The notes: generated by a model from the sequence alone, not told the origin. A stretch of 64,000 nt of DNA from Syntrophomonadaceae bacterium (GCA_031553935.1 JAVBKS010000034.1:5034-69033); one strand, 5' to 3'; shown: positions 7,965-24,552, counted from the first letter of the stretch. Numbers and translations are program-made.

Positions 7965-8039
7965 ACTCGATCTCCCCATCTATTATGGCCATAGGTAAAA
8001 TGACATTACTGTTTCCAGGCTTCAAACCATTAACACCAG

Positions 8040-8645: not shown

Positions 8646-8814
8646 GCTAATACTTGTATACCCTCTCCGATTGTATTTCTGCTTGAACTACTTTCCCAAG
8701 CTCATTCATCCAATTGTTGCTGTTATTAATGTGGTCAACTTTATGTCTCTCACCGAGCGTCAACAAGTTGTGTTGTTGTCGCCATCTTCGTTAATTGAGC
8801 GAACATTGTCAATA

Positions 8815-9585
8815 TTATGGCGCTTTCTTTAGTGTATAGAATGCACCATCCATAAGAAAATAAAATTTGTTATCCGAAGATAGGACAAGTGTTGCTGATT
8901 CATAATGAGCAGGTTGAAGGTCTTCACCCTTTCTTATAAAGAATTTTATATAAAGAACAGGGTATTCAACCCAAAAATCTTTAGTTATTGTCGTGGCATC
9001 TACAAATACTGGATAATTATCACTAGATCTATCAATACTCAACACAATATTCACTGGACTTGGATCCCATCCTTCTACAAAAATGCAATTTGCGCTAGTG
9101 TCTTTCCAATTATCAAGAAATTTTATTTCTTTTACTGAAAAACAATTTGCAGGCTTTTTACTCTTGGCATTCTCTACTTTTTTCTCATATTCCAAAATTA
9201 ACTCTTTATTAGACAATTCATCTTTATGATATTTACTATCATATAAGTCAGGATAATATATTGTGGAATCAACGAATCCTACGTACTCTCCAATATACCA
9301 AACGCCTTTAATTTGGTTCATGATTTGATCTATCTCTTCCAATTCCCACCTGTTATCATCTAAATGTCCCACACCATAAACTTCATTATTTATTCTATCT
9401 TCGTTAATAGATAAAGTTCTTTTCCCTAGCAGATTAATATCAATAGAATTATTTTGAATATTCGAGGAAGTATTAGTTTTCGAATTAATACTATGCGAAA
9501 TAAAATCATTGCCAATTCTGCTAAAAGCAAAAACCATCATAGAAAAAGCGATCGTTACCATTATAAATAGTATTTTTCTATTCAC
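8815..9585 (-). CDS. Hypothetical N-terminally membrane-anchored protein
   Basis: The track ORF starts with TTG at 9615. A GAAGGAGA RBS sits 7 nt before the GTG at 9585, giving (M)NRKILFIMVTIAFSMMVFAF as the anchor. Confidence 0.55.
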   Translation of the reverse strand: MNRKILFIMVTIAFSMMVFAFSRIGNDFISHSINSKTNTSSNIQNNSIDINLLGKRTLSINEDRINNEVYGVGHLDDNRWELEEIDQIMNQIKGVWYIGEYVGFVDSTIYYPDLYDSKYHKDELSNKELILEYEKKVENAKSKKPANCFSVKEIKFLDNWKDTSANCIFVEGWDPSPVNIVLSIDRSSDNYPVFVDATTITKDFWVEYPVLYIKFFIRKGEDLQPAHYESATLVLSSDNKFYFLMDGAFYTLKKAP

Positions 9586-9799
9586 TTCGCTATCTCCTTC
9601 ATCAAGTAGTCGCAAACCATATTTATAAATATCATATTCTCTCTTTTCTTCCTTTTAATCCAGGATTTTTGTCTACATAGGCTTGAGCAACAAGTACCAA
9701 AGTGACACATCTATTGGCAACATGTTGTAATTTTTCACTGGATAGGAAGTCGAGAAAAACGCCCAGCGACTGACATCTATTATCATGTTCTTTCTGGAG

Positions 9800-9878
9800 G
9801 TTTCAAATTTTTGGATATAGGATTATCATTGCACGATAAAACACTTTTATGTTTACGGGATACCTGTATTCCCATTCT
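9800..9878. repeat. Second copy of the ~78-bp repeat module, here non-coding
   Basis: CAAATTTTTGGATATAGGATTATCATTGCAC ... CACTTTTATGTTTACGGGATACCTGTATTCCCATTC aligns to 7015..7090. Confidence 0.7.
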
Positions 9879-9938
9879 AAGTTTCATACGCAGAAAAATA
9901 CCTCATGCAGAGAATCTTCACTTGCTAGAGTTCGTAAG

Positions 9939-10264
9939 TTACCATAGCTTGCCTTGAATGAATTCATATTCTGTTTTTAGCTCATATGCTCTTCGTTTAT
10001 ATCTTTCATATTCAAATTCTGCTGCATCAATCCCCCCCAAAGTCCCCCCTTCATATTCAGCAATAATGAGCTGCATATCTAAATTTGCATCTTCAAATGC
10101 AAATTCTTCCCATTTCATTTGGGACTTGATAAGGCCTATTTTTCCTTCTTCCATTTGATTAGCGGGCTAATTCTTTTCAAGGTATAATTCTGAGAGAGGT
10201 ATAAAAACCCGATCACGAACAAAAATATTATGCTTATTATCACTATGATGGTTTTCTTGTTCAT
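9939..10264 (-). pseudogene. Frameshifted gene for a small membrane-anchored protein (42-aa TM-anchor ORF plus 71-aa ORF in the next frame)
   Basis: The ATG at 10264 has an AGGAG RBS and encodes MNKKTIIVIISIIFLFVIGFLYLSQNYTLKRISPLIKWKKEK-stop (stop at 10136..10138). The 71-aa track ORF starts at 10154 in a different frame, and that frame is closed by a stop only 4 codons upstream of its ATG. Confidence 0.45.
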
Positions 10265-10404
10265 TCTATTCTTCTCCTACTCAAAAAAATCATCTATAGA
10301 ATATCTAGCTAAGTCTCGCATGTAAGTAGTTGGCTCGGTTCAATATTCATTTGGCACAACCAGACGTGTCAATGGGACGAAGATGGCGGAGGAATGACGC
10401 CCAT

Positions 10405-11016
10405 TTATGGTCGATAATCGATTATTGCATACAAGTAATCAGTCCCATCTATTTGGACAAATACAGCTACTAACCCGTAAATAAATAACGCAGTATTATC
10501 TTGAATGTTATCGACGTCTGCACAAACAAGAATAAATCCATTCTTTCTTTTAATTATCGTAGGTTTATTATCTATAGAAACCCCTTGTCCAAGGATTTGA
10601 GCAATTTCTTCCGCATAAGCTGAAACTGAATCAATATTCATTGATATATATCCATCCAATTCGGTTGCATATATTTCTTTTTCACAGATCTCAAGGTTGT
10701 TAAGTGTTAGTGTCAAATCGATCTCTGCCTCTCCAAATACAGGAAAACGCAAATTTTCTGGAATATTTTCCTTTTCTAACTCTATTGCATAATTCTTACC
10801 CCTGACTCCGAAGCTCGAGCTGAAATATCTCATAATGTTTAATTCATCTTTCACCAAAGCCCGAAATGACTTTGCATCTCTATCTTCAATCGATTTCAAA
10901 AGAATAATACTCTTCTTTTCAGACTCCGAATGGTTTCCAATTACATAGATGGTAAAGCACGATATAGTAAATAAACCTATAAACAGAATAATAATAGCAA
11001 TCCATCTTCTTTTCAC
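10405..11016 (-). CDS. Hypothetical N-terminally membrane-anchored protein
   Basis: 203-aa ORF with a GTG start, an AGAGGTG RBS, and the anchor RRWIAIIILFIGLFTISCFTIYVIG. Confidence 0.55.
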   Translation of the reverse strand: MKRRWIAIIILFIGLFTISCFTIYVIGNHSESEKKSIILLKSIEDRDAKSFRALVKDELNIMRYFSSSFGVRGKNYAIELEKENIPENLRFPVFGEAEIDLTLTLNNLEICEKEIYATELDGYISMNIDSVSAYAEEIAQILGQGVSIDNKPTIIKRKNGFILVCADVDNIQDNTALFIYGLVAVFVQIDGTDYLYAIIDYRP

Positions 11017-11275: not shown

Positions 11276-12667
11276 TTAAAGCTTAAATAGTAACTTTAAT
11301 GTAACCGCAGCTTCGGCGCGATTGGCGTTTTGGGTGCCGTTAATAAAGAAGCCTTGTTCATTTGCTTTGACCAAGTGCCCTTGTTCCAGCAGTCCGCGAT
11401 GTTGAGCATATGCTATATATGGTCTAGCCCAAGTGCTTATGCGGGTTTCTTTGGCAAAAGCAGCGATCAAATTCTGCTCGGCATTTAGGGCTTGTTGCTC
11501 TTCTCCGCTAGCTCTGACCACCATGGCTACCATCTCTTCTACTGTAAGCGGAGTATGCGGCTTAAAGGTTCCATCTTGATAACCATATACAATTCCCTTG
11601 CTAACTGCCCAATTAACATGCTGTTCATACCATGATCCGGCTTCAATATCAGAAAAGGTGCTCGCAGAGTTACTTACTTGACTGTCCTTTGCCATTTCTC
11701 TGCCCAGCATTGTCACAAACATTGCCCGGGTTAGATTCTGCTGTGGGGCAAATTCTCCTTCAGCAATTCCACTGATAATCCCTTTTGCCCCTAGCGCCTT
11801 AATTGCATCCTGCGCCCATTCGAAACCGGCTAGATCATTAAACTGCACTGCTTTCTCCCCGGCATTCCAGAGTGCAACTTCACTATTGCTATGCCCTGCA
11901 CCTACTGCAATTGCTTTAACCTTAAGCCCTGCTTTTATGGGAAGGGGGACATTTAATTGGGGCTGGTAATAACTGGCGCTTACATTATAGATTTTGCTGT
12001 TAATCGTGGGCTCTGATTCATCTGTTGTGTAATAGATCTTTACTAGGTCATAATTCTTATGGCCGAGTTCCAGTACTTCTTGCTTCTGTTCATTTAAGCC
12101 GGTTGTAAAAGTCACCGCTTCCCAGGAGGTTATTTTTTCGGTGGTAACTTCTATGTCAGCTAAGTATTTAACCATCCAGGGGCTGGTCTGTTCGCCTTTG
12201 ACCCTCTGCCCAAGGATTAGCATTAATTCTTTATCTGCTAAATCATTAAAGCTTTTGGCACTTCCTTTAAGTTGAATAAGGGCCGGAACGCGAGCCTGAG
12301 AGCTGCCGTTAAAACTATAGCGCGGATCGTTCAACAGTTCTTGACATGTAAATGTTCGGCTATAGCCATCAGATGCCGTAACTTTTATCAAGGTCGCCTC
12401 CGGCTTGTATCCAGCAAGCTTGAGAACGTTTTCCAAGGGTATACCCTCTGCATATTCAGTTTTGTCAGAGGGAAAATTGTTAGTGTGGGTATAGACATGC
12501 CGTTCTTTGCCGGCTGTGGCTTCAAGTGTCGCTCTATCTAATGTCAATACTTTTTCCACGCCATTGCCGTGAATCTTGACACTTTCGCTAGCCTCTGCAG
12601 TATTTGCTTGAAAAAAAAGCAATAATGTAAAAACCCATGCTGTTAAGGTAATTTTCTTGATGATCAA
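11276..12667 (-). CDS. SLH-domain cell-surface protein with one sulfite-oxidase-fold (molybdopterin-binding-like) module and a chitobiase/Fn3-like domain
   Basis: 463 aa. TTG start with an AAAGGAG RBS, and the signal peptide MIIKKITLTAWVFTLLLFFQANTAEA. The module RHVYTHTNNFPSDKTEYAEGIPLENVLKLAGYKPEATLIKVTASDGYSRTF ... LMLILGQRVKGEQTSPWMVKYLADIEV is followed by YYTTDESEPTINSKIYN. Three C-terminal SLH repeats are present (FNDLAGFEWAQDAIKAL..., FSDIEAGSWYEQHVNWAV...). Confidence 0.8.
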   Translation of the reverse strand: MIIKKITLTAWVFTLLLFFQANTAEASESVKIHGNGVEKVLTLDRATLEATAGKERHVYTHTNNFPSDKTEYAEGIPLENVLKLAGYKPEATLIKVTASDGYSRTFTCQELLNDPRYSFNGSSQARVPALIQLKGSAKSFNDLADKELMLILGQRVKGEQTSPWMVKYLADIEVTTEKITSWEAVTFTTGLNEQKQEVLELGHKNYDLVKIYYTTDESEPTINSKIYNVSASYYQPQLNVPLPIKAGLKVKAIAVGAGHSNSEVALWNAGEKAVQFNDLAGFEWAQDAIKALGAKGIISGIAEGEFAPQQNLTRAMFVTMLGREMAKDSQVSNSASTFSDIEAGSWYEQHVNWAVSKGIVYGYQDGTFKPHTPLTVEEMVAMVVRASGEEQQALNAEQNLIAAFAKETRISTWARPYIAYAQHRGLLEQGHLVKANEQGFFINGTQNANRAEAAVTLKLLFKL

Positions 12668-12778: not shown

Positions 12779-15700
12779 TTATCTTTGCATAAATATTTCC
12801 AGAATCTTTTTGATGATAGTTGAGGCTTCAGCCCGGCTGGCATGATCCTGGGGCTTGAAATTACCATCCATATCACCATTAAGGATTTCTAGGGCATGCA
12901 TCTCATTAACAGCGTTTAAGGCCCATGCACTGATCTGATCTTGATCTGCAAATGCTTCTGCCTCTTCATCTTGACTCAATCCCAGATTGAGTTCAGTGAT
13001 AAATTTGTAGGTTATTAAAGCCATTTGTTCACGGGTGATTTCTGTATCCGGCTTAAATAATCCGTCTTCAAATCCATTTACGATCTTTTGTTCGGCTGCC
13101 CAGAGGACATATTTTCCATACCATGCAGCAGGATCAATGTCTTCGAAACTGGTTTCCGGGTTGAATTCTAGTCTCAAGCCTTCGATAGTTGCAGCAAGCA
13201 TTTTTATAAATTCAGCTCGGGTAACATTGGCATTAGGATCGAATGCATTCTCAGCCTTGCCGCTGACAACAGCTCTGGCTGCCAGGAACTCCACATTCTT
13301 GCTAGCCCAATGATCTACAGAGTCACCAAAGGTCTGATCATTATAGCCGACTGCAAAAACGCTGAGATGATTAATAAAGCCTATTACCGCTTTGTCATCA
13401 GCATTATAGCCAGACATCGGTATAGCTACTCTATTTCCATTAGCATCAACATGATAGGCAAGTATTTTATCTTCTTTTTCTTCTTCACTCGGAGTATAAG
13501 GTATTGCAAATTTCAAAAAGCTCTGCAGTGAAGTTAGCTCCGTGCCATCAACGGCAAAACTAATATCAATCGCCGGATGCCCTGGATTCGATTCTTCTTG
13601 GCCGTTATCAATGTTAGCTACGGCAATTGTTGCAGTATTACCACTTTTCATTGCTGCTAATAAGCCCGCTAAGACCTCGGTAACAACAGTCAAATCGCCG
13701 TGATTAGTCCTAATGGATAGACCGGCTTGCCCTTGATCTACCAAGCGTTTGAGCACCTCATAGGGCAATTCTACAACTGACTTGTTTATTGTCTCGCCAG
13801 TACTACAGTTTACGATAATGTTCTTGCTGCCGGTGTCATCTGCCAGAACTTTCAGCGCTTTTTCCATGTCTTCAACCGTGATTGCCATGCTGGCTACACC
13901 ATTTTCTACCTTGACTTGGCTTTCCAGGGCTAAAGGAGTCTTTTCTTCTTCCTGTTTCGTATTGCTGCTGCCTGAGGATCCAGGTCCAGGAGTTCCTTCT
14001 CCGTTATTACCTGTGCTGGTACTGATTTCAATATCGCTTACATCACTTACCCAGTCGTCTCTATTGACATCATCGGTACTTTGCTGGGCAACAACTAGTT
14101 GTAAACCAGAGAGTGTATTACCACTTTGTTTCCAAGCTAAGAGCATTGGACCGCCATTAATGAAATTCATGGTTGGCTCACCACTGCTATCGATATTGTA
14201 TACTCGGTAATAGCCATCTGCACTTGAGATTTTGACGCTTTTTCCTCCTGATAATAAGCCGGAATTATTTAATACCGTTGATAGTTTAATTCCAGTAAAA
14301 CTCTCAGTTCCTTTAGAGCCATAATTATTAAGCCACGGATAAGATGCAGTTGTTGATCCCAGGTTTTTCAAATCATTGAGCGAATAATCTTTGTTTGACC
14401 CGTTTCTAGTTACAGTGAGAATGGCATCATTTTCGCCACCGCCTGTTCCGCCTCCGATGTTGAAAGTATTATATGCTAGTCCAGCATCAGAGCCGACATA
14501 TAAAGTGTTGCCGACGAAACCTAGATAATAGATATTATCCATGCCAACAATGTCAGGCCAAGCTTGGTTACCTGAACTATATACATTTTCTATTTCGTTT
14601 AGTTTTTTGCAATAGATAACTCCTGATCCGGAAGTCCCAAACCACAGACCATCGGCTTTATCTACTGCTACCATGCGGATTTCGTGATTACCAGCCAGAT
14701 TTTCCCCAAGTAATTCTTTGCCGGTGTAACTCACGACTGTGCGGTTCGAGCCGCTGCCGCTTACATGGTCTACTCTTCCGCCAACATTGGCTAAGGTTGG
14801 ATATGAACCTGAACGAACTATCCAAGCGCCGCCCTTACTGTCTACCGCAATTCCGCGTACCCAGGCATCAGCCAATAATGATGACTGCAATGTGCTGTCA
14901 TACTGACCTTCATAGGTTTTAGCAAAATCAATCACTCCGGCAGAATTCATATGAGCGTATCCGCCTTTGAAGAGATCATTTTCTGTACCGGTTCCATCAG
15001 GATAACAGCCTATCCATAAGCCTCCCGATTTCTCGAAAGTTATGGTATTGACAGATGCTGCCGGTAAACCATCGGCTTTGGTCCAGGTCCGCCAGGTATT
15101 AGCGGTGGGGTCGTACTTGGTAATTCCGCCAAAGGAACCGAACCAAACATCACCCTTACTGTCAATCTCGATGGCTTGGACATAATCACTGGGGATAGTC
15201 GCCGGATTATCTGCGGCCCGATACCAGGTTATACTGCCATTTTTCAGGTAGCCTATTCCTCTGTTATTCTGAGGTTCACTGTAGCTGGCATTCTGGCTGA
15301 ACCAAACCCCGCCGTCCTTGTCAACAGCCAGAGCGGAGACAAAATCATTTTCCAGCTTTGGTGTACCCTCAGTATTATAAAATGTAAAGCTGGTGTCCGA
15401 AGCAGATTTATAGGCCATGCCAGTGCCATAAGTGCCAATCCAAATTCCATTTTGACTGTCCACTTTAATGCTTCTGATTTTGGCATAGGGAAGATTAATA
15501 CTTGAAACGAAAGAATTAAACGTGTATTTAATCGGCATGGTTACCGATATTCCCTTAATACTAGTCAAACGGTTCTGCCAGTTCTCACCATCATTGAAGT
15601 TGCGATAAATTCTTACAGTTGCTTTAACCCCGTTTTTATCCGCATCTTCGATTTTAGCCAATTCCTCTAGGCTAGGTCCGGCATCATAAGCTAAAAAGTA

Positions 15701-18700
15701 TTTCTTAGCTATGGCATCCTTTAATAATATGTCGCGGTAACTCTCTTGCTTAGTTTCATAGCCGTCGGTAGTATTAATAGTGATTTTGGCATCGGGGTCA
15801 GTTACCCCGGCATCCGCTAATATATCCTGCAGATAAGCACCCTTGACATAATCAGTTTTCTTCTCTCCGGCTTGAGTATAAGAATAATTAGCAGTGGCTT
15901 TGCCTTTATCATTAGGCAGTTGCATGATTCCACCGGCACCGCCAATCCTATAATTCTTGACTCCTGCACTTAAACCGAAAATGCTGAAGTCATTAGTATC
16001 AACCGGTATCACAACTTCCGAATCTCCTACTACGATTTTCTCAAGCCATTTTACGCACCAGCCGGTATTATCATGGACAACTAGGCGCAATGGCCCGAAT
16101 GCATTGCCGTAGTTAGAATCGTAACCGGGGGATTGTTCGTTCTCGACCAAGGGCAGGCCCTGAGTGGCATTGAGACCCTGACCATAAGCAATTATGATGG
16201 GCTTCCCATTAACTCCATTCTTGAGTTGGGCGCCGTCAAATTGGGCTGAAAAACCACCCGAATACGCGGTAACAACCGCAGTATCCAAACCATCTTTAAA
16301 ACCTATCCCCTGCAGGTATTTATATAGATCTATACCTTGCATAAAGAATTCGCCGCCCATTTTGTAGGTGTCGGCAACTTTAATATTGTCTAATGCTTCT
16401 AATGCAGCTACTGTAACCTTCTGCGGGGTTGCAATTTTATTGCCGTTTATCTCCAGCTCGTGACTGGCATAGGGCGCGAAGTTTCCAGACTTGTGGGTCC
16501 AGTCATTAATGGCACCGGCTATAAGCTCGATCTCGGTTACTGATGTAATGCACTGGCTTGCAGTGCCATTATTAATTATCAGCCGCAGTGGACCGCCGCT
16601 ATTATTGTATCCGGCGTCAAAGCCCGGTGATTGCTGTTCCGGCACCAATGGCTTCCCATCAAGAATTCCGCCGCTGCCAGCAATACCATAAGCCAAGATG
16701 ATTTTTTTGTTGCTGTCTGTCAAGTCGGCAATACTTAATTCGATACTATCTTGGCCATTTTTAACTATGATAGCGTTCAGCAAGGCACTGCTGCCTATCG
16801 AGCTGTCGTTTAGCAAGCGGAATAGTTCCAAGCCTCTATAAGTAACCGCTTTGTCTCCAATGGTATACTCTCTCGTGGATAAATACTTTTGCTTCTTTTC
16901 TAAGTCGCTGATTTTAATATCACCAGGTTTAGCCAAAGCCCCTGAGAACTTAACTTCCATATCGCCATAACCAGAATAGGTTTCACCGGTATGGGCATAA
17001 GCATCAGCTTCCATATTAACTACTATCTTGGTTAGGTTCTCGACTATGGTTTTGTTGTCATTGATGGTATCTACAATTCCGCCATTCTTTTCTTGTTCAG
17101 TCTGGCCACGAACGAATAGCAAAGGCCCGCCGGTATTCTTAATAACTTTTCCGGTCACAGTATCGCTATCTACATATCCCGTACCTTTTCCGTTTACTAA
17201 GGGATAGCCATTTTTGGCAAAGGCAATCATCATGCCAAGTTTATCCGTGCCGTTAATACTGTTGAAACCCTCAGCTCCAAGTTGATTCAATTGATAAGAT
17301 GCCTTCAGGGTGTCACCGCCGTATAGATCAACACTTCCCAGACTTCCAGGTAAACCTATATATTCGGTCAGTAAATAATTCAGGTTAACTCCTTCGAATA
17401 GATCCTGTATTTGATCGCCATTACCTGCTTTCTTGTAGTAATAGTAACCCTTTTCCTGGCGTCCTTCCGTATCCCTAATCTTTTTGGTTATTCCTGTTCC
17501 ATAGAGGATGTTTTCTAATTGCGATAGGGTTAGCTCATGACTTTCTTGGGTGCCATTTATTTCTATAGTTAAGGCTGGGTTGTCTTTCATTGCAGCATAA
17601 TCGGGATTCTGGGCATGGGTTGAGTAACGAATTTCGTCGCCCACATATATTTCTTGGGCCCGCTGCAGCTGATTAGAACCGTTATTGTAGAAATAGGCAT
17701 AGTTATCTGGAGCATTACTGTCAATGCGATTCATATTATCGGCTTTGCCAAAAATAACCCTAACCGGTCCGCCGTCATTGCCCAGTCCGCTGCGAAAGCC
17801 CTCTAGAGTGCTGCTGCGCACATAAGGATAACCGTTTACACCATATGCCAGTAAAACCGGATAACCTTTTTTAACCGGATAGTTATTAGAGTCCTTGCTC
17901 CAATTGCCTTCACGGTTGTCGGGCTGATAAGCTGCAGTTGCCAGCTGTTCTTTTGTAGGTCTGGCGGTTCCGATATCTAAGGGTGACTTCTCATAAAACA
18001 TGAATAAATCTGGATTAGCTAGCTGTTGCAATGAGAATTTCGCTGTGGTCAGATAATTATCCCAAGCCGTAAATGATACCAGATTAGTATTATCATTTTT
18101 ATATTGTTCAGCATCCAGACCTAATTTCTGGGTAAGCAATTCCCAGAGCTTAATGCCTTCGTATTCATTTACATACCAATAAGTAGTGTTGGAAAGACCA
18201 TATTCATCTCGGTATCCCAAACCATCTGCTTTCGGTCTCTTATTATCGTCGTATTCGACCATGGCTTCGAGTTCAGCTATGGTATAGTTAACCTCTCTTC
18301 CCAGTAGGGCTCCGGTAAAAGTTAATAAGTATTCGGTATTGGTCTTATTGCTATAGGCCGGATCAAGTGCCTGAGAATGCTTGTAACCAGGTGTGCCCCC
18401 ACTGGGTTCAACATAAATATAGGCTACACTGAGGAATTTTTTCGACTTACTTATATTCTGAAACTCGTTTAAATCATAGACCAATTTCAAACAGCCGTCA
18501 TCATTGCCGAGTTCGGGCTTAGTTCCGAGTGCTCCATCATAAACGAATGGGGCTACACTAGTACCATCCAAGGTTCCGGTACCATAGGCTAAAATCAGCG
18601 GTTTCTTGGCAGTTATTACATCATTATATGGAATTCGGGCTACCTCCTGGCGCCAGCGGTTCTTGAAAACTAAAACTACATCTTCGTCTACTTTGGCAAC

Positions 18701-20464
18701 TGTTGCTTTTACATGGCCTTCGATTATGTCTTTGATTATTATTCCTTCATATAATAATGAAGTTTCATTATCACGAAAATCATTGTAGGCGCCGCGATGA
18801 ATATAAGCATCAGCACTGTTTTCTAATTCCCGCACTGACATCGGTGTAGTGGCCTTGACTCCAGGGCCTTCTACCGTCAAGGTTGCACCGGTAATAGCGT
18901 CGATATTATAGGGAGCACTGCCGCTTAAGCCGCCGTTATTAATGTGCTTATAGGGACTGCCGGCATAAGATTTTTCATCAATTGTGATATTATCAACCAT
19001 TTTAGCCGGGGTCATGTTATCGACATATAGGGTTAAGTAGCCTTTGATTGTTTTATCATTTTTAGCTGTTGAATAAATCGCTTCCCAATTGCCTTGATTC
19101 TTGGTTTCATAGGCCAGAATGGCATGCTTATCAACAAGATCTTTTTTAGTCATACCATCTGCAGCTACTTTAAAGCCATCTGCAGCAGCAAACTTAATTA
19201 CATCATTGTCTTTGTATTTTTCCAAAAGCTTAGCTAGGGATACTCCCCTCACTTCGGCCACGGTTTCATCAGAAGCACCCGTCTTTACAAAACGATGTTC
19301 CTGCTCAGTACGTTCCATCATCAATAATTGCGCCCGGGTGTAATTGTCGTCTTTGGTCTTGAGGGCTATTGTTGCAATTGGTTGCTGGTCCCCGATCAAT
19401 ACTCTGAACAAGGGAGTGGGGCCATTAAAGAGGGGATTATTGTAGTCGTTTAGCGCTAATTGTCCGGCCATGATGCGCAGTTTCGAGTCATCATAAGCGC
19501 TGACTTCAGTTGGTGTTTCGATTGTTCCTCTTGCTCCGCCTTCAGCCCAAGCTACAATAGTCGGAACCTCAATTGCGCCTGCGTCGCTATTATCTCCTAT
19601 CTGGGGATAATAGTAGCGGTCAGCTGTAAAAACCTGTGAAATATTTGCCTCATTTGTTACACCAACTGTAGTTTTTGCTGGATCAAATACTATTTTATAA
19701 CCATCACCAGCGAATACAGTCACTTTATTATTGGCTAAATCAGCATCAGTTTTTGCTAATAAAGCTGCAAGTCTTATGCCTTCACCTCGGAAAACACTCT
19801 TTGTATTAGCTGTATTTATGGCCGAGTATAAGTATTGGTTATTAGCAGCTGCATTCTCGTCTTGTTCAGCAATTGCCAAAAGTTCAGCCAATGAATAAGC
19901 TTTCTCTTGGTTAATATTATTTTCCGTATATTCACCATTTCCGATAATTGCATTTCCGCTTATTAATAATACCGGCTGTTTGGCAGCTCTCATCTGCTCA
20001 TAGTCCAAGGACTGGGAGCCAAGAAGCATATTAAGCAATGATTCATCTTCCAGTTTCATTTCCCAAACATTTGACTGATCTGAATCTTCTGCTTCTGTTT
20101 CTGCTTCTATGGTATCGGAATCAGAGGGCAATTGTTCTTGTCCAGTGGCAGCCTGATCTGCTTCATCCGGTCCTCGGATTTGATCAGCATCGCCTTCATC
20201 TGGTGCTTCTGCCAATGGCACCTCAATCACTTCATCTAGTTCTGAATCTGTTAAATCACCGGCCTCATTCGCATTTTGCCCCTCTAATTCAACAGCATCA
20301 TTATCAGGAGTTTCATTAGTGTCAATGATTTTTACTTCTGTATCTGTTGCCCAAGCCTGTCCTAGAGAAAGGCCTGAAGGTGCAAGTATTTGCATAATGA
20401 AAGCCAAAATGATTATATAACTGATCAAAGATCTGCTATTTTTTTGGTTTCTGGTTTTTAGCAT
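12779..20464 (-). CDS. Giant (~2561 aa) S-layer-homology-anchored protein: ~9 tandem sulfite-oxidase-fold (oxidoreductase molybdopterin-binding-like) modules, a Reg_prop-type beta-propeller, and 3 C-terminal SLH domains
   Basis: The track ORF starts with TTG at 20524. The ATG at 20464 has an AGGGGG RBS and gives the signal peptide MLKTRNQKNSRSLISYIIILAFIMQILAPSGLSLGQAWA. Repeated modules end in ILAYG...GGPLRLIINNG, IIAYGQG...FGPLRLVVHDNTGWCVKWLEKIVV and LLAYGVNG...GGPVRVIFGK, as in the YedY/MsrP and sulfite oxidase Moco domain. Propeller blades include IRSIKVDSQNGIWIGTYG, VSALAVDKDGGVWF and VQAIEIDSKGDVWFGSFGG. SLH repeats begin at FGDSVDHWASKNVEFL.... Confidence 0.85.
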   Translation of the reverse strand: MLKTRNQKNSRSLISYIIILAFIMQILAPSGLSLGQAWATDTEVKIIDTNETPDNDAVELEGQNANEAGDLTDSELDEVIEVPLAEAPDEGDADQIRGPDEADQAATGQEQLPSDSDTIEAETEAEDSDQSNVWEMKLEDESLLNMLLGSQSLDYEQMRAAKQPVLLISGNAIIGNGEYTENNINQEKAYSLAELLAIAEQDENAAANNQYLYSAINTANTKSVFRGEGIRLAALLAKTDADLANNKVTVFAGDGYKIVFDPAKTTVGVTNEANISQVFTADRYYYPQIGDNSDAGAIEVPTIVAWAEGGARGTIETPTEVSAYDDSKLRIMAGQLALNDYNNPLFNGPTPLFRVLIGDQQPIATIALKTKDDNYTRAQLLMMERTEQEHRFVKTGASDETVAEVRGVSLAKLLEKYKDNDVIKFAAADGFKVAADGMTKKDLVDKHAILAYETKNQGNWEAIYSTAKNDKTIKGYLTLYVDNMTPAKMVDNITIDEKSYAGSPYKHINNGGLSGSAPYNIDAITGATLTVEGPGVKATTPMSVRELENSADAYIHRGAYNDFRDNETSLLYEGIIIKDIIEGHVKATVAKVDEDVVLVFKNRWRQEVARIPYNDVITAKKPLILAYGTGTLDGTSVAPFVYDGALGTKPELGNDDGCLKLVYDLNEFQNISKSKKFLSVAYIYVEPSGGTPGYKHSQALDPAYSNKTNTEYLLTFTGALLGREVNYTIAELEAMVEYDDNKRPKADGLGYRDEYGLSNTTYWYVNEYEGIKLWELLTQKLGLDAEQYKNDNTNLVSFTAWDNYLTTAKFSLQQLANPDLFMFYEKSPLDIGTARPTKEQLATAAYQPDNREGNWSKDSNNYPVKKGYPVLLAYGVNGYPYVRSSTLEGFRSGLGNDGGPVRVIFGKADNMNRIDSNAPDNYAYFYNNGSNQLQRAQEIYVGDEIRYSTHAQNPDYAAMKDNPALTIEINGTQESHELTLSQLENILYGTGITKKIRDTEGRQEKGYYYYKKAGNGDQIQDLFEGVNLNYLLTEYIGLPGSLGSVDLYGGDTLKASYQLNQLGAEGFNSINGTDKLGMMIAFAKNGYPLVNGKGTGYVDSDTVTGKVIKNTGGPLLFVRGQTEQEKNGGIVDTINDNKTIVENLTKIVVNMEADAYAHTGETYSGYGDMEVKFSGALAKPGDIKISDLEKKQKYLSTREYTIGDKAVTYRGLELFRLLNDSSIGSSALLNAIIVKNGQDSIELSIADLTDSNKKIILAYGIAGSGGILDGKPLVPEQQSPGFDAGYNNSGGPLRLIINNGTASQCITSVTEIELIAGAINDWTHKSGNFAPYASHELEINGNKIATPQKVTVAALEALDNIKVADTYKMGGEFFMQGIDLYKYLQGIGFKDGLDTAVVTAYSGGFSAQFDGAQLKNGVNGKPIIIAYGQGLNATQGLPLVENEQSPGYDSNYGNAFGPLRLVVHDNTGWCVKWLEKIVVGDSEVVIPVDTNDFSIFGLSAGVKNYRIGGAGGIMQLPNDKGKATANYSYTQAGEKKTDYVKGAYLQDILADAGVTDPDAKITINTTDGYETKQESYRDILLKDAIAKKYFLAYDAGPSLEELAKIEDADKNGVKATVRIYRNFNDGENWQNRLTSIKGISVTMPIKYTFNSFVSSINLPYAKIRSIKVDSQNGIWIGTYGTGMAYKSASDTSFTFYNTEGTPKLENDFVSALAVDKDGGVWFSQNASYSEPQNNRGIGYLKNGSITWYRAADNPATIPSDYVQAIEIDSKGDVWFGSFGGITKYDPTANTWRTWTKADGLPAASVNTITFEKSGGLWIGCYPDGTGTENDLFKGGYAHMNSAGVIDFAKTYEGQYDSTLQSSLLADAWVRGIAVDSKGGAWIVRSGSYPTLANVGGRVDHVSGSGSNRTVVSYTGKELLGENLAGNHEIRMVAVDKADGLWFGTSGSGVIYCKKLNEIENVYSSGNQAWPDIVGMDNIYYLGFVGNTLYVGSDAGLAYNTFNIGGGTGGGENDAILTVTRNGSNKDYSLNDLKNLGSTTASYPWLNNYGSKGTESFTGIKLSTVLNNSGLLSGGKSVKISSADGYYRVYNIDSSGEPTMNFINGGPMLLAWKQSGNTLSGLQLVVAQQSTDDVNRDDWVSDVSDIEISTSTGNNGEGTPGPGSSGSSNTKQEEEKTPLALESQVKVENGVASMAITVEDMEKALKVLADDTGSKNIIVNCSTGETINKSVVELPYEVLKRLVDQGQAGLSIRTNHGDLTVVTEVLAGLLAAMKSGNTATIAVANIDNGQEESNPGHPAIDISFAVDGTELTSLQSFLKFAIPYTPSEEEKEDKILAYHVDANGNRVAIPMSGYNADDKAVIGFINHLSVFAVGYNDQTFGDSVDHWASKNVEFLAARAVVSGKAENAFDPNANVTRAEFIKMLAATIEGLRLEFNPETSFEDIDPAAWYGKYVLWAAEQKIVNGFEDGLFKPDTEITREQMALITYKFITELNLGLSQDEEAEAFADQDQISAWALNAVNEMHALEILNGDMDGNFKPQDHASRAEASTIIKKILEIFMQR

Positions 20465-20534: not shown

Positions 20535-21677
20535 TTAATCTACCATTATCAATGAATCGACCAAACCAGGTGTTGTCGTTATACCCAGGTCATTACCAAT
20601 AATCACTCCTTCCATCATAAAATCGGTTTTCGCCTTAGAGAATTCCCCTATAAACTGCATGCCCTTTTCCGGACCCATAACCATTAACGCTTTGGTCATC
20701 ATATCAGCCTCAGTGGAGCTTTTTGCTATCACGGTAGCCGCAACACATTTGGTTGTTGGCTTTCCTGTCTGGGGATCAAATATATGATGATATCTCTGGC
20801 CATCAATCTCGAAATACCTCTCGTAATCACCAGAGGTCACCAGTGAAGCATCAACAACCGGCAAAACTGCAATTACTGCATTTTCGTCCTTACGCGGATG
20901 TCTAATTCCTATCTGCCAAGGCTTCCCATCCGGCTTGGAACCCACTGCATATACATTTCCTCCCGCATTAATTATGGCATGTTTTATTCCCTGTTCTTTC
21001 AGTTTTTCTACAGCTTTGTCAGTAGCATAGCCCTTAGCAATTCCGCCCAAATCCATTATCGTACCCCTGTTAACCATGATTTCATCTCCGGCAAGCGTAA
21101 TACCCTTGTAATTGCCGGCTTGCAGAGCTATCGCCAGTTCATCAGCTGTTGGTATATGTTTTTTACCCTTAATGTCCCATAAGTCACTTACCCGTCCCAA
21201 ACCGATGTCAAAAGTGCCACGACTAAGATCACCAAATTCTAAGGCCCTACTAACCATGGCAATTAAATCCGGTGATACTTTCACCCAAGAACCGGGCGAA
21301 TTATTGATTCTGTATACGTCGCTGCCGCTGGGATCCTGCAAGTTTCGGGCTGCAAATCTATCGGCTAGAATATCAATGCGGTTGTATTCAGCTTCAACCG
21401 CTTGCCTTGATTTTTCTGCCTGTTCGGGCGATTCGGCATAAATTATCAAAGTGATTACAGTATCAAGCGCAAAGAAATTGGTTCTATACTCAGACAGATC
21501 GGCAGCACTTACGTTAGGATTAAGTGTATTGCGTTCACTAATTGAATGGCCGCCATTTTGGCAAGCATTTACGAAAGGAAGAAATAATATAAGAGCAATG
21601 ATGATCTTGGCAGATGATTTGGTTTTACGTAACTTTTCTGAACTTGATCCTAAAAAATACAAAACACATTTCCCCAT
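20535..21677 (-). CDS. apbE: FAD:protein FMN transferase (ApbE family), predicted lipoprotein
   Basis: 380 aa with ApbE hallmarks GGIAKGYATDKA, INAGGNVYAVG and TSGDYERYFEIDGQRYHHIFDPQTGKP. The lipoprotein signal is KIIIALILFLPFVNAC. The stop codon lies 10 nt from the giant ORF and about 70 nt from its likely ATG. Confidence 0.9.
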   Translation of the reverse strand: MGKCVLYFLGSSSEKLRKTKSSAKIIIALILFLPFVNACQNGGHSISERNTLNPNVSAADLSEYRTNFFALDTVITLIIYAESPEQAEKSRQAVEAEYNRIDILADRFAARNLQDPSGSDVYRINNSPGSWVKVSPDLIAMVSRALEFGDLSRGTFDIGLGRVSDLWDIKGKKHIPTADELAIALQAGNYKGITLAGDEIMVNRGTIMDLGGIAKGYATDKAVEKLKEQGIKHAIINAGGNVYAVGSKPDGKPWQIGIRHPRKDENAVIAVLPVVDASLVTSGDYERYFEIDGQRYHHIFDPQTGKPTTKCVAATVIAKSSTEADMMTKALMVMGPEKGMQFIGEFSKAKTDFMMEGVIIGNDLGITTTPGLVDSLIMVD

Positions 21678-21756
21678 TTCGAAATAGATAAAAAGATCTC
21701 CGGCAATTTAAATGCTCTTCGAGCTTTCCTCGTCAGCCGAGATCAAGCCTGATAAA

Positions 21757-21780
21757 TAAAAAAAGCCTGCGCAAGCAGAC
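21757..21780 (-). terminator. Intrinsic terminator inside the apbE leader (candidate riboswitch expression platform)
   Basis: The minus strand reads GUCUGC-UUGC-GCAGGC followed by UUUUUUUAUUU. An alternative pairing of upstream AAGCCU with AGGCUU is possible. It lies about 80 nt upstream of the apbE ATG. Confidence 0.6.
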
Positions 21781-21796
21781 TTCTTCTAGGCTTCAC

Positions 21797-21893: not shown

Positions 21894-22117
21894 TAAAATT
21901 ATTAAATTATTCAATATTTTCTTTTTCTAAGTGAAAGTAAATGTCAATATTAACATAATAATATCATAATTCCATCTATTTCGACAATAGTTGAGCAAAT
22001 TTTCTGATAATTTAAAACATTTCGTGATTTCTCGATTATTACGAGCTGAGTTATAAAAATGTTTTCTAAAGCTCGAAAAAAGGCTAAACTTAATAAAACG
22101 CATTAAAGGTGATTCAT

Positions 22118-23671
22118 ATGAAAAAAATTCTAAGTATCCTATTAGCAGCACTGTTTATACTTATTTATGATCCAATAGTCTTAGGCGACATTTATATCGA
22201 AAACGGGGTCCCCACTGAAAACCCGCGCAGATATGTTTATGACGATTTTCAATTAGTAAAAAATGCCTCTTCCGGCATTAACATCATTTATGATTATCCG
22301 AAAGGTTACTCCCTATTCTATCCGGCTAACCTTGAAATAGACACTTCACTCAGCGAGATAAAAACAGTATTGGCGAATAAGGATACTCAGATTGAAATCT
22401 ATAGAGATAACTTTGCTAAGACTACGTATAATTTCAATAGTTACCATAGTATCAGTAATTATTTTCTCAATAACGGTACTGATCATAAACTGCAAGAAAA
22501 CCGAACAGTAAAAATAAATGACCACACTGCTTATTTACTAAAATGGAACCGGGCGAAATTGAAACAAATCGAAAATGACAAGAACAATTATTTAAGTTTG
22601 GAAATCGCGGTTTCCCCAACTCTAGTTTATACAATTATTGTTAAGTCAAGCCATGAAGTTGACGCCATACTTCCTTATTTAACTACTTTCAACTTAATCG
22701 AAACTCAAGGCGCACCACATAACAATACAATTTTTAAGCCGGTTGAGAAAGATTGGAATGAGGAAACCAAGCTTTTCTTCGATGAGTATTTTTCTCCTGA
22801 GGCCAAAATAAATTGGGGCATTTACGAGCATACTGCACCGGCTAGCTTAGACTTCTTGAAACAATTGGAAAGCAAACTCGGCCATAGATTCAGCATTTTA
22901 ACCCATTATCATACTTTCCATACCCCATTTCCTATGCAGGAACTTAAGAATGCTTATGCTGAGAAGCGTATAGTAGAACTAACTCTGCAGACAATGTGGT
23001 TTAAGCGCGACAATAACAGCACCATTTATCAGATTCTAAATGGCGATTACGATGTGTATTTTAAGAATTATGCCCTGAAAGCAAAAGAATTTGGCCATCC
23101 CATTCTCTTCCGCTTCAATAATGAGATGAATGCAGAGTGGTGCTCCTATTCCAGTTATTTCACGTCTAAGGATCCGGAGCTCTTCAAAGCTATGTGGCGT
23201 CACATTTATAGTATTTTCCAAGAAAATGGCGCCGATAATGTATTGTGGATTTGGAATCCCACTGATGTGTCTTACCCGACTTTCAAATGGAACAGTGCCC
23301 TAAACTATTTTCCCGGTAATGAGTATGTAGATATCGTAGGACTAACCGGGTACAATACCGGAACTTATTATCAAGGCGAAAACTGGCGTACTTTCAGTCA
23401 GATCTATGATCCCCTTTATACCGAATACTGTTTAGCTTTCGATTACCCCTTTATGATTACTGAATTTGCTTCCAGCTCAGTTGGCGGCAATAAGGAGCTA
23501 TGGATTGCAGATATGTTTAAACAAATCGAACGCTTCAAAAAAATCAAAGTAGCCATTTGGTTCAATGGAGTCGATTTCGATGCTAATATGCAGCAGGCTC
23601 GCAAATACCGTTTAGATGATACCCAAGCGGTTGTCAATGCCTTCAAGGATGGATTTAAGCAGTATAATTAG
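22118..23671 (+). CDS. Secreted glycoside hydrolase family 26-like protein (beta-mannanase-type)
   Basis: The track ORF starts at 22109. An AAGGTGA RBS precedes the ATG at 22118, giving the signal MKKILSILLAALFILIY. The C-terminal half has GH26-like motifs FRFNNEMNAEWCSYS, LWIWNPTD, YVDIVGLTGYN and ITEFASS. Confidence 0.65.
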   Translation: MKKILSILLAALFILIYDPIVLGDIYIENGVPTENPRRYVYDDFQLVKNASSGINIIYDYPKGYSLFYPANLEIDTSLSEIKTVLANKDTQIEIYRDNFAKTTYNFNSYHSISNYFLNNGTDHKLQENRTVKINDHTAYLLKWNRAKLKQIENDKNNYLSLEIAVSPTLVYTIIVKSSHEVDAILPYLTTFNLIETQGAPHNNTIFKPVEKDWNEETKLFFDEYFSPEAKINWGIYEHTAPASLDFLKQLESKLGHRFSILTHYHTFHTPFPMQELKNAYAEKRIVELTLQTMWFKRDNNSTIYQILNGDYDVYFKNYALKAKEFGHPILFRFNNEMNAEWCSYSSYFTSKDPELFKAMWRHIYSIFQENGADNVLWIWNPTDVSYPTFKWNSALNYFPGNEYVDIVGLTGYNTGTYYQGENWRTFSQIYDPLYTEYCLAFDYPFMITEFASSSVGGNKELWIADMFKQIERFKKIKVAIWFNGVDFDANMQQARKYRLDDTQAVVNAFKDGFKQYN

Positions 23672-23763
23672 CATACGAATGAATTCGAACGCATCTAATG
23701 AGGATACATGCGCTAACTGAATAATCCATCTGTTGCTTTTGACGCTTCAATAATAGAGGAAAG

Positions 23764-24552
23764 CTATTTTGTCACCCCTCTATTAGAGGAGCTGCTCGGT
23801 GCTTTGATTAGTCCTTCAACCTTACTTCTGCTAAGGCCGGTTAAACGAACCAATTGCCTTACTGATATATTGCCTCCAAGTAGCTTTTTAAGATATCTAG
23901 TCTGCTCTCTTTCGCCAAGCGTTTGGAACTCTTGGAGGTCATTTAGCTTACATTCCTTTTTGATTATTCTTGCTGCAACATGATCGCCGATTCTTTTTTT
24001 CTCACTGAATTCCAAAAACAACTGCTTATTATCAGATCTATCATTTACCATTTCAATGATAGTATCCAGGGGAATAATTTCGAATAGTTGCTCATGATCA
24101 ATTATTGCAGATGTATTCTTTAGCAGACGAAAGCTGCTCCATTGAAAGTCCTCTGCTATTTTGCATAGCTTTGCTTGTACCGGTTTTAAATAAATATATC
24201 GCAGCACTTTTGTAAAATAAGTTACATCTTCTACCGGAATGCTCTTGTAGCGGTCTTGAAATAGATGCCCGCTGCGTTCATATTTTTGGTTGTACCAATA
24301 TACGAAACGCGCTCCTAGTCTTCGAAAGGCTTGAGCAAGAGTTTCTTCTCCCTCTTTAATAAGAAGATGCACCTCATTACCTAATAGTACATAAGCATAG
24401 AGCTCAAATTTGCTTAATTTCTTACTTTCTTCCAAACAATACAGGAATCTTTCTTTATCTTCTTCATCTTTGAATATCATCTGTTGGTTGGCAGCTCGAA
24501 GTATTACATGGTAGATTCCAGTCTCACTTTTATGGCGTGCTGCTCTTGGCAT
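23764..24552 (-). mobile_element. REP-associated tyrosine (Y1, IS200-like) transposase-like protein with C-terminal HTH
   Basis: 262 aa. Supporting segments are GIYHVILRAANQQMIFKDEEDKERFL, EVHLLIKE, HLFQDRYKSIPVED and RYIYLKPVQAKLC..DFQWSSF (RAYT/COG1943 pattern), followed by the HTH SVRQLVRLTGLSRSKV. Confidence 0.75.

Follow-up and report, generated by a model that had tools for sequence, protein, structure and literature searches.

The DNA analysed here, a stretch of 64,000 nucleotides from a Syntrophomonadaceae bacterium (GCA_031553935.1 JAVBKS010000034.1:5034-69033; hereafter the window, with positions counted from its first letter), carries on its minus strand a gene for a giant protein of 2561 amino acids. 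Our analyses show, or at least strongly support, that this is a Sec-exported surface protein, anchored by SLH repeats and containing nine ancient, sub-functionalised copies of a minimal sulfite oxidase (SUOX) fold of the PruR type. None of these modules has the cysteine that ligates molybdenum (Mo) in SUOX enzymes, as had been pointed out in a first-pass annotation made by a model from the sequence alone. The missing cysteine is not in itself the novelty, because the best sequence-profile match of the modules, PruR, represents an already described class: the PruR pterin-binding proteins were reported in 2024 as a cysteine-less branch of the SUOX fold in which Trp replaces the Cys (PMC11194511). 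The surprise is instead the system built around the cysteine-less modules. In the literature searched we found no description of a tandem nine-module surface architecture, of a flavinylation site embedded in a SUOX-fold module, of the wider family of such modules fused to FMN_bind, phosphoesterase and transporter partners, or of the control of such genes by a riboswitch for the tungsten (W) or Mo cofactor.

Architecture of the giant protein and the fold of its modules

The coordinates of all features are collected in table 1. A mechanical call of the open reading frame (ORF) extends the giant gene by 20 codons further 5', to a TTG start at 20524, and the database copy of the protein corresponds to the 2561-residue form. 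Pfam searches with the whole protein returned SLH (125 bits), Oxidored_molyb (PF00174; 63.8 bits, the cut-off being 24), Reg_prop (60.7 bits) and a weak FMN_bind match. When the modules were taken singly, four gave sub-threshold PF00174 matches and five remained silent, so the whole-protein PF00174 score alone is not proof for each module. We therefore turn to a hidden Markov model (HMM) that was seeded with the nine modules and iterated on eight full-length homologues and on neighbouring proteins. It recovers exactly nine modules in the window protein, in keeping with the approximate count proposed at first, each with an E-value between 1e-21 and 1e-39, and it detects seven to ten modules in the full-length homologues. 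The nine modules are only about 20% identical to each other in pairwise comparisons; a self-BLAST of the giant protein produced no off-diagonal matches, and windowed phmmer searches revealed weak repeats only.

Evidence independent of this HMM comes from three sources. First, a profile of 61 modules, compared with all PDB sequences, matched SUOX-fold proteins only, the best match being PruR (7KOM, E = 4.9e-13), followed by SorA (2e-9), plant sulfite oxidase (9e-9) and further PruR structures (7RKB and 7KOS, 1e-5 to 8e-5). The profile alone succeeded in this respect, phmmer searches of PDB with the whole protein or with single small relatives having given no SUOX match. Second, the AlphaFold model of module 7 (pLDDT 92.4, pTM 0.89) was matched by Foldseek to 39 PDB chains at E < 2e-3, all of them SUOX enzymes (SorA, nitrate reductase, SoxC, sulfite oxidase, SorT, YedY) or PruR, with the next match at E = 0.38. 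Third, module 3, which has no Pfam match of its own, was modelled with a pLDDT of 83.4, and its Foldseek matches are SUOX enzymes only. No other part of the protein is as well conserved as module 3, where column identity averages 65% in the orthologues. The HMM, the profile search and the two models together establish that the description of the protein as an array of nine SUOX-fold modules is correct. The sequence pattern originally ascribed to every module is less general than thought: GGP(L/V)R is found in four modules only. VKWLEKIVV, which had been ascribed to some of them, occurs solely in module 7.

The N-terminal signal peptide is of the Sec type; a twin-arginine motif was not seen on inspection by eye, either in the window protein or in seven orthologues. 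The Reg_prop propeller and the SLH anchor, both recognised from the outset, lie at approximately 14495-15547 and 12803-13339, respectively, and the propeller has PDB matches of its own (4A2L, E = 1e-18; 3V9F, E = 1e-16).

Two other features of the protein may be recorded in this context. Between the signal peptide and module 1, some 120 residues with a high content of D, E, T and A form an acidic region of low complexity (19985-20347, minus strand), which is absent from seven homologues, where module 1 directly follows the signal peptide. In addition, an aromatic-x-His motif recurs at the junctions after modules 2-6 (SPYKH, PGYKH, YSTH, AYAHT and WTHK; in the window, for example, at around 18365-18385 and 18917-18940), and the PGYKH following module 3 is invariant. 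The spacing of this motif resembles that of the NDY(322)K active-site Tyr motif behind the molybdenum cofactor (Moco) domain of sulfite oxidase, a putative correspondence only, the junction part of the module 3 model being of low confidence.

The molybdenum-ligand position and the pterin pocket

The alignment column corresponding to the Mo ligand (C185 of chicken and C98 of plant sulfite oxidase) was anchored via the Trp that replaces the Mo-ligating Cys in PruR, the alignment of PruR and the modules being free of large gaps. Plant sulfite oxidase served as a check by eye, with the context of its Cys98 verified against 1OGP. The program hmmalign could not place the sulfite oxidase Cys at the level of individual residues, the loop from the ligand column to the conserved Gly comprising 26 residues in sulfite oxidase versus 9-14 in the modules. 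Modules 1-9 of the window protein exhibit A, F, D, L, Y, I, M, Y and W in this column, so the Mo-ligating Cys is indeed missing from all of them, and, as previously noted, the protein has just a handful of cysteines, six in all (ORF positions 678, 1325, 1490, 1840, 1972 and 2240), none at the ligand position. One of the sequences quoted as a module of the giant protein, THTNNFPSD, turned out to be located in the next gene (11276-12667). The absence extends well beyond the window: among 86 modules taken from eight giant and thirteen neighbour proteins, none has a Cys in the column and three have a non-conserved one nearby, and 120 representatives of proteins that combine an FMN_bind domain with a module (FMN_bind-SUOX) have Ile (117) or Val (3) there and never Cys.

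Some module types have a conserved residue of their own at or around this site. The Asp of module 3 is invariant (8/8 orthologues) and is accompanied by an invariant Arg two residues on, and module 9 and its orthologues share an invariant Trp, like PruR; Trp occurs also in modules 7 and 8 of some orthologues, and other residues are found elsewhere. The last strand of module 7 carries a Cys in a G-x-C context (Cys1490 in the window, GWCVKWL), present at or near the same position in seven of the eight orthologues; in an alignment by eye this Cys faces the Ser in the GARSVKW stretch of sulfite oxidase. None of these three conserved residues (Asp in module 3, Trp in module 9, Cys in module 7) is a SUOX ligand known from characterised homologues. 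We know of no SUOX-fold enzyme with an Asp or an alternative Cys as the ligand.

In PruR, N102 forms a hydrogen bond to the pterin and Y104 stacks on it. The equivalent positions (Asp/Asn and Tyr/Phe) are both retained in five of the nine modules (1, 2, 4, 8 and 9), where the respective stretch reads DGY, DGF or DNY; GGF stands there in module 7 and NRW in module 3. An aromatic residue at the Y104-equivalent position is retained in six or seven of the nine modules, and the FMN_bind-SUOX relatives possess both the Asp and the Tyr/Phe of the pterin site without exception (120/120 in each case). As regards W160 of PruR, a second stacking residue in the last strand, the HMM alignment ends before this residue; with the register judged by eye against a Vibrio PruR homologue, a Trp is situated one to two positions away in modules 7, 8 and 9. 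The modules, which start about 10 residues before strand 1, have neither an N-terminal RNH segment nor a CxGNRR loop. By analogy with their closest characterised relatives, which bind free reduced pterins in a truncated Moco site, and with the Asp/Asn-x-Tyr/Phe residues mostly retained, the modules are predicted to provide pockets for a pterin-type ligand.

A flavinylation motif in module 3 and the adjacent apbE gene

The gene directly upstream of the giant gene, on the same strand, is apbE, coding for a flavin adenine dinucleotide (FAD):protein flavin mononucleotide (FMN) transferase. Given that the giant gene follows immediately downstream, the two genes are probably co-transcribed. The N-terminus of the ApbE protein contains VNAC and looks like a lipoprotein-type signal. 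An apbE gene belongs to the cluster also in the orthologous loci (designated by L numbers) L002, L003, L006, L008, L021, L030, L049 and L050, the window apbE being 45% identical to that of L003.

The giant protein contains one copy of an ApbE target motif, PYNIDAITGATLTVEGPGV, which conforms to the Dxx[ST]GA[ST] pattern. In the extended form PYx[IL]DAITGATLT[VI]EGPGV the motif is present as a single invariant copy in each of the eight homologues, whose sequences are otherwise identical at 37-49% of positions. Pfam reports a weak, partial FMN_bind match at the motif (18.9 bits, range 15-19). The motif is, however, not part of an FMN_bind, DUF2271, DUF3570 or NqrB/RnfD-type domain, but constitutes strand 1 of a SUOX-fold module according to AlphaFold and Foldseek. 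A relative of 339 residues bears the same motif and aligns to RnfG across the flavinylated Thr. The adjacent apbE gene and the invariant target motif inside module 3 point to a flavoprotein system, and, judging from these sequence features, the giant protein is most likely covalently flavinylated outside the cell.

Relatives and conserved gene clusters

A word-indexed search yielded only eight full-length relatives of the giant protein. An exhaustive profile search covering 1.84 billion representatives retrieved 2139 proteins at E <= 1e-3 (128 at E <= 1e-30), including about 40 representatives with seven to eleven modules and up to 2981 residues. When species-representative genomes were scanned with an alignment of module 3, 49 loci were identified, nearly all from Clostridia/Bacillota and one from a metagenome-assembled genome (MAG) labelled Coriobacteriales. 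The taxa represented include Syntrophomonas, Anaerovoracaceae, Mogibacterium, Tepidanaerobacteraceae, Oscillospiraceae, Flavonifractor and Sedimentibacter, together with MAGs from termite and ruminant guts, and the cultured Lutispora saccharofermentans m25 (L024) is also a carrier. The closest of these species-level loci is only 60% identical to the window in module 3.

Loci of the Syntrophomonas type share a conserved cluster of two operons with a riboswitch between them. The first operon encodes a fusion of a Metallophos phosphoesterase with a cysteine-less module, a protein of 650 residues that comprises two modules, a 339-residue lipoprotein consisting of an RnfG-like FMN domain and a module, and a DUF4405 protein of 83-89 residues. 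The second comprises apbE, the giant gene, a gene for a protein with SLH repeats and a module (SLH/module gene), genes for a transporter of the energy-coupling factor (ECF) type, and MobB. The ECF genes specify a PF09819 membrane protein, a membrane-anchored single module of 175 residues, two ATPases and CbiQ; the membrane component, when compared with PDB, showed no match to the solved YkoE. MoeA and ThiF genes lie upstream in L005 and L028. Genes for DUF4405 and FMN_bind-SUOX proteins are found in L002, L003, L005, L006, L008, L021, L028, L049 and L050, DUF4405 proteins being flavinylation-associated haem-b cytochromes (PMC11334425), and Lutispora has a NapH-like Fer4_5+FMN_bind membrane protein in place of DUF4405. 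The word-indexed search showed the FMN_bind-module lipoprotein to be widespread, returning over 200 clusters that go under the annotation of RnfG or FMN-binding protein. In L004, an importer of the FecCD/Peripla_BP_2 type and a 165-residue module precede the giant gene.

The Lutispora cluster (L024, 8670-17793) is shorter and has the following gene order: the riboswitch, a 1690-residue protein with multiple modules and a propeller and without SLH repeats, a 240-residue module, a 543-residue FMN_bind plus module protein, and the NapH-like membrane protein, which is 401 residues long. It may also be mentioned that the NCBIfam model NF041762 (GEGP motif-containing dihaem protein) gave weak matches (E = 1e-5 to 1e-8) in L003 and other loci, covering the central part of several cysteine-less modules; this haem family may contain the same domain.

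From this cluster, the window itself holds the riboswitch, apbE, the giant gene and the SLH/module gene only. The last of these immediately follows the giant gene in all Syntrophomonas-type loci, and its product is 44% identical to that of L003 (L003_SLH470), the module HMM giving a match in the orthologue as well. The site where the first operon would be expected is occupied by a divergent GH26 gene (22109-23671, plus strand) and an IS200/Y1 transposase gene (23764-24552, minus strand), and a rearrangement in the region 22109-24552 may have removed or displaced the first operon.

A riboswitch of the tungsten cofactor type

The leader upstream of the giant gene had been described as Moco-type, and its membership in the Moco riboswitch family (RF01055) is confirmed with a score of 65 bits; yet it is of the P3-less tungsten cofactor (Tuco) type, with the P3 columns deleted in the covariance alignment, and it directly precedes apbE rather than the giant gene. 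P3-less variants of RF01055 were associated with the tungsten cofactor by Regulski et al. (PMC2408646), and a study of E. limosum treats this variant as Tuco-specific (PMC11725836). The window aptamer is directly followed by a terminator with the sequence AGAAGAAGUCUGC-UUGC-GCAGGCUUUUUUU.

The P3-less element is present upstream also in L002, L003, L005 and L006. A covariance model built from 13 riboswitch copies matches 31 of the 49 species-level loci, each time in the orientation of the giant gene and mostly 0.3-3 kb upstream of the module 3 match; in total it detects 37 copies across the loci, compared with 13 found by a strict regular expression. The first (Metallophos) operon has its own copy in L009, L021, L049 and L050. 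Several loci exhibit tandem copies, and two or three tandem P3-less aptamers were seen upstream of the giant gene in L025 (6968-7338) and L049 (6979-7580). With 31 of 49 loci, the window, and L002, L003, L005 and L006 all pointing the same way, the link between riboswitch and gene is firmly conserved.

In the orthologous loci, the conserved aptamer core CCCGUUU can pair with the 5' arm of the terminator to give a clear antiterminator, the classical arrangement of an OFF switch. The window riboswitch is most likely such a switch too, and the operon is predicted to be transcribed at low levels of the pyranopterin cofactor and silenced at high ones. This prediction, which follows from a P3-less riboswitch succeeded by a terminator, has a parallel in E. 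limosum, where operons with terminator-type Tuco riboswitches are up-regulated under tungsten limitation (PMC11725836). A leader of this kind argues against a cofactor-using enzyme and for a function induced by starvation.

Possible role of the system

Our preferred reading, held tentatively and as a possibility that falls somewhat short of probable, is that the giant protein is a flavinylated, Mo-free surface protein induced by cofactor starvation and forming the outer part of a pathway for the acquisition of pyranopterin or W/Mo. Its modules would be binding pockets for a pterin-type ligand, which may be the pyranopterin cofactor, a precursor like cyclic pyranopterin monophosphate (cPMP), or another pterin. 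Electrons would be delivered by a membrane carrier, represented in the orthologous loci by the DUF4405 b-type cytochrome or the NapH-like iron-sulfur (FeS) flavoprotein, and the FMN_bind-module lipoprotein would pass them on to the FMN of module 3, the surface array thereby keeping or making the ligand reduced. The Metallophos-module fusion would process the ligand, to be handed over to an importer by way of the 175-residue anchored module of the ECF operon or, in L004, to the FecCD-type importer. The giant protein itself would serve as the part for outer capture and redox conditioning of the W/Mo pyranopterin cofactor or its precursors.

A role in acquisition, be it of the cofactor, a precursor or the metal, is suggested by an operon predicted to be induced at scarcity together with the importers, the module-fused phosphoesterase and the MobB and MoeA genes. 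That electrons would come from the membrane is suggested by the carrier genes being interchangeable between loci, a pattern described for flavinylated extracytosolic systems. We infer that the modules are not molybdoenzymes, because the protein is exported unfolded and hence without cytoplasmic Moco, the ligand is missing, and expression is predicted to be repressed by the cofactor. Among the alternatives listed in the first-pass annotation, pterin binding without canonical Mo ligation is therefore the one retained, with ligation of the metal through another residue and a purely structural role both rated low.

Several points weigh against an acquisition pathway. To our knowledge, no bacterial uptake system for Moco, molybdopterin (MPT) or cPMP has been described, and the literature searched contained no link between an ECF transporter and Moco salvage. 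The FMN_bind-SUOX, DUF4405, ECF, MobB and MoeA genes were not found within the 64-kb window. Flavin export for ApbE, as in Listeria (PMC9973259), is another conceivable task of the ECF transporter. The assignment of the window riboswitch as an OFF switch rests on the terminator and on weak alternative pairings, and Tuco riboswitches of E. limosum also control the cofactor-using WOR1 and iron transporters (PMC11725836), so that the logic of such a regulon is not exclusive to acquisition. Pterin binding is extrapolated from PruR at 13-20% identity, and the stacking aromatic residue is lost in modules 5 and 6. Finally, the pocket residues differ strongly among the nine module types, each type being conserved across species, which fits distinct roles better than nine copies of one site.

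Some of the same evidence might be accommodated by a cofactor-sparing substitute, that is, an extracytoplasmic oxidoreductase independent of Moco and Tuco in which covalent FMN replaces Moco in the SUOX fold. The isoalloxazine ring, a benzo-pteridine, would then take the place once held by the pterin, both in the pocket of module 3 and in that of the FMN_bind-SUOX lipoprotein, and the protein would be made only when pyranopterin is scarce, by analogy with MetE and NrdEF, which are repressed by B12 riboswitches. An OFF-type riboswitch is what such a scenario calls for, and the target Thr does lie on strand 1 of a SUOX-fold module; the fusion of FMN_bind to a cysteine-less module in more than 200 clusters and the parallel between the electron input modules and the path from MsrQ to MsrP point in the same direction. 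So does module 3, the most conserved one, with invariant charged or aromatic residues at SUOX pocket-loop positions (Y61, D63, R65, K102, N103, R104, R106, N155-D157, K161 and Y195-K196-H197 in the module 3 alignment). We nevertheless consider this scenario unlikely: the motif exists in one of nine modules only, no substrate can be proposed, and the MobB, MoeA and importer genes of the same clusters are left unexplained.

Distinctly unlikely in our view is a generic role in extracellular electron transfer or respiration of Gram-positive anaerobes, with Fe(III) or other oxidants as the acceptor. Electrons would travel from the membrane carrier via the FMN lipoprotein to the flavinylated S-layer protein, the modules would be a scaffold or bind redox shuttles, and the riboswitch would couple W/Mo status to iron or redox demand, as may be the case in E. 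limosum, whose iron transporters are controlled by Tuco riboswitches. The combination of ApbE, FMN and a DUF4405 or NapH-like protein is typical of flavinylated extracytosolic systems, SLH repeats confer a surface location, and a FecCD-type transporter adjoins the giant gene in L004. On the other hand, a single flavin per 2561 residues does not make a conduit by itself, and the protein, with its six cysteines, has no haem or FeS motifs; the presence of the same cysteine-less module in every partner and the MobB and MoeA neighbours would be unaccounted for, and the surveys of flavinylation consulted do not mention such modules.

We regard as very improbable that the protein is a true Mo or W enzyme with a non-canonical ligand, loaded with the cofactor outside the cell after export. 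The candidate ligands would be the invariant Asp of module 3 (8/8 orthologues) and Cys1490 of module 7, the latter with Cys1325 of module 6. Module 7 does retain the SUOX fold with the GPLRLVV and VKWL motifs, its G-x-C Cys recurs in 7/8 orthologues, and the operon has a Moco/Tuco riboswitch and, in related loci, MobB and MoeA neighbours. However, a Sec rather than a Tat signal implies that the protein crosses the membrane unfolded, and we know of no case of extracytoplasmic Moco insertion. The predicted riboswitch logic is repression by the cofactor, and the modules, like PruR, are devoid of the N-terminal RNH segment of the SUOX Moco site. The site of PruR is truncated and unlikely to hold Moco (PMC11194511, PMC13259868). 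Least probable of all is a structural S-layer protein or adhesin with SUOX-like domains as degenerate, ligand-free blocks: the SLH anchor, great length, tandem repeats, propeller, large SLH neighbours and pairwise module identity of only about 20% would suit it, but it is at odds with the conservation of each module type across species, invariant residues at pocket positions included, with a flavinylation motif and an ApbE partner that do not vary, with a riboswitch shared by more than 30 loci, and with the fusion of the same module to partners for catalysis and transport.

To return to acquisition, its most far-reaching version would be extracellular capture of the W/Mo cofactor, MPT or the stable precursor cPMP by Mo-free SUOX-fold arrays. 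That we are dealing with the first bacterial Mo/W cofactor salvage system, or else with a flavin-for-Moco swap in module 3, seems to us rather doubtful, if still worth bearing in mind. Were the preferred reading right, it would link three subjects, namely the pterin-binding SUOX branch, known to date solely from proteins with one domain that serve signalling in Proteobacteria, the extracytosolic flavinylation carried out by ApbE, and the W/Mo-cofactor riboswitch regulon. Gram-positive anaerobes would be investing a surface protein of 2500 residues in extracellular pterin handling at times of cofactor shortage; these include syntrophic and gut-dwelling taxa reliant on formate dehydrogenases and aldehyde oxidoreductases of the W/Mo kind, which touches on the question of cross-feeding or salvage of Mo/W cofactors between microbes. 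Lutispora saccharofermentans m25, being cultured, provides a usable experimental system. There is a consequence for annotation as well: hundreds of Clostridia proteins labelled "molybdopterin-dependent oxidoreductase", "FMN-binding protein" or "RnfG" contain the cysteine-less module and are unlikely to be molybdoenzymes.

Other genes of the window

Downstream of the operon (6014-11016, minus strand) there are five small ORFs (203, 266, 201, 310 and 221 residues) with no Pfam match and with hydrophobic N-termini, several of them signal- or lipoprotein-like; they differ from the ECF genes found at this place in the orthologues. A second very large SLH protein, of 2293 residues (24774-31655, minus strand), combines Flg_new/List_Bact_rpt and DUF7619 with three SLH repeats and contains no SUOX-type modules. 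An ORF of 1219 residues with a Big_13 Ig-like domain (33949-37608, minus strand) is located in a stretch with a G+C content of 50-57%, compared with about 41% elsewhere in the window, which may be foreign DNA. At 360-2069 (minus strand) lies a gene for a 569-residue protein with a Shr-like haem-binding HID and Cu_amine_oxidN1, another surface cofactor-binding protein in the vicinity.

Table 1. Features of the riboswitch-controlled operon and of the giant protein it encodes. HMM, match to the module HMM; Cys column, residue at the position of the Mo ligand.
Feature	Position	Strand	Residues (2561-aa numbering)	Remarks
SLH/module gene	11276..12667	-		463 aa; tenth Cys-less module at ~12113-12586, Fn3_assoc/CHB_HEX_C_1, SLH
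Giant surface protein	12779..20464	-		7686 nt; 2561 aa plus stop; ATG at 20464
Three SLH repeats	12803..13339	-		cell-wall anchor; Pfam SLH 125 bits; PDB 6BT4, 3PYW
Domain without assigned family	13355..13927	-		between module 9 and SLH; no Pfam match; similar stretch in L005_749
Module 9	13988..14455	-	2004-2159	HMM; most PruR-like: Trp at Cys column, DGY, Trp before last strand
Reg_prop beta-propeller	14495..15547	-		Pfam Reg_prop 60.7 bits; internal repeats; PDB matches
Module 8	15512..16018	-	1483-1651	HMM; Cys column Tyr; DGY retained
Module 7	15998..16492	-	1325-1489	most SUOX-like; FGPLRLVV, GWCVKWLEKIVV; Cys column Met; Cys1490 in last strand
Module 6	16487..16990	-	1159-1326	HMM; Cys column Ile; GGPLRLII; Cys1325 in last strand
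Module 5	16985..17608	-	953-1160	HMM; Cys column Tyr; DGY aromatic lost
Module 4	17609..18361	-	702-952	HMM E = 4e-39; Cys column Leu; DNY; GGPVRVIF; long insertion
Module 3	18371..18916	-	517-698	HMM E = 2e-31; Cys column invariant Asp; KNRxR replaces DGY
ApbE target motif DAITGATLT	18875..18901	-		target Thr (Thr528) at start of beta-strand 1 of module 3
Module 2	18941..19405	-	354-508	HMM; Cys column Phe; DGF retained
Module 1	19382..20005	-	154-361	HMM E = 4e-26; Cys column Ala; DGY retained
Signal peptide, Sec-type	20348..20464	-		ends in AWA; assigned from sequence; no twin-arginine motif
apbE	20535..21677	-		FAD:protein FMN transferase; Pfam ApbE 269.7 bits; NCBIfam ApbE 131.6 bits
Intrinsic terminator	21755..21787	-		hairpin and U-run directly after aptamer; fold -21 kcal/mol
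Moco/Tuco riboswitch RF01055	21786..21899	-		P3-less variant; cmscan 65.2 bits, gathering score 36

Comparison with known systems

The nearest described relative is PruR (Atu3496 of A. tumefaciens; 7KOS, 7KOU, 7KOM, 7KP2 and 7RKB), which has, like the modules, a minimal SUOX fold of about 140-170 residues without the Mo-ligating Cys, and which is likewise exported by Sec to the extracytoplasmic side. Structures of PruR superimpose on module 7 with TM values of 0.62-0.69 (normalised to PruR) at an identity of only 14-17%; five of the nine modules keep both residues of the Asp/Asn-x-Tyr/Phe of the pterin site, and module 9 has the Trp at the Cys position. PruR differs in that it consists of one domain, resides in the periplasm of Proteobacteria, has a DcpA-type GGDEF/EAL membrane protein as its operon partner, and acts in signalling. 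No gene for such a partner was found in the window or in the related loci examined, whereas the Vibrio control locus (L007) has one. The system described here, in contrast, has nine fused, divergent copies anchored by SLH repeats, occurs in Clostridia, and is associated with a flavinylation site, ApbE and a Tuco/Moco riboswitch; modules 4-7, moreover, retain the long SUOX loop (NxGGPLR), which is short in PruR.

The SUOX enzymes (sulfite oxidase 1SOX and 1OGP, SorA 2BLF, SorT, SoxC, nitrate reductase 2BIH, YedY/MsrP 1XDQ) have the same fold as the modelled modules (Foldseek probability 1.0, TMq 0.5-0.64) and share with module 7 the LAY, GPLRLVV and VKWL motifs, and the path from MsrQ to MsrP resembles the one proposed here from DUF4405 via FMN to the module. 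Unlike these enzymes, the modules lack the Mo-ligating Cys, the CxGNRR loop, the RNH segment and the dimerisation domain, and the window protein carries a Sec instead of the Tat signal by which exported members of the family, loaded with cofactor in the cytoplasm, cross the membrane; it also consists of tandem copies and is predicted to be repressed by the cofactor rather than to need it.

With respect to function, an analogy is offered by BtuG of Bacteroides, a B12-binding surface protein that is repressed by a cofactor riboswitch and encoded next to an importer. BtuG-type systems have no relation in sequence or fold to the protein studied here and no redox component, the analogy resting on gene context.

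Proteins flavinylated by ApbE (RnfG, NqrC, Listeria PplA/FmnB; NapH-like, MsrQ-like and DUF4405 proteins; PMC8238504, PMC11334425) have the same motif, an adjacent apbE gene, an extracytosolic location and, as in the orthologous loci, DUF4405 or NapH-like carriers. In the giant protein, unlike in those systems, it is a SUOX-fold module that carries the motif, on its first strand; the two surveys of flavinylation consulted do not mention molybdopterin-type domains, nor has control by a Moco/Tuco riboswitch been described for such systems. The Tuco regulons, exemplified by tupABC, fetABC1, focA and wor1 of E. limosum (PMC11725836, PMC2408646), have the same aptamer variant followed by a terminator and are likewise tied to transporters and to genes of the W/Mo cofactor. 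Set apart from the Tuco targets described so far, the genes found here under this riboswitch are apbE, a multi-module surface protein, an SLH/module protein and, in the orthologues, an ECF operon.

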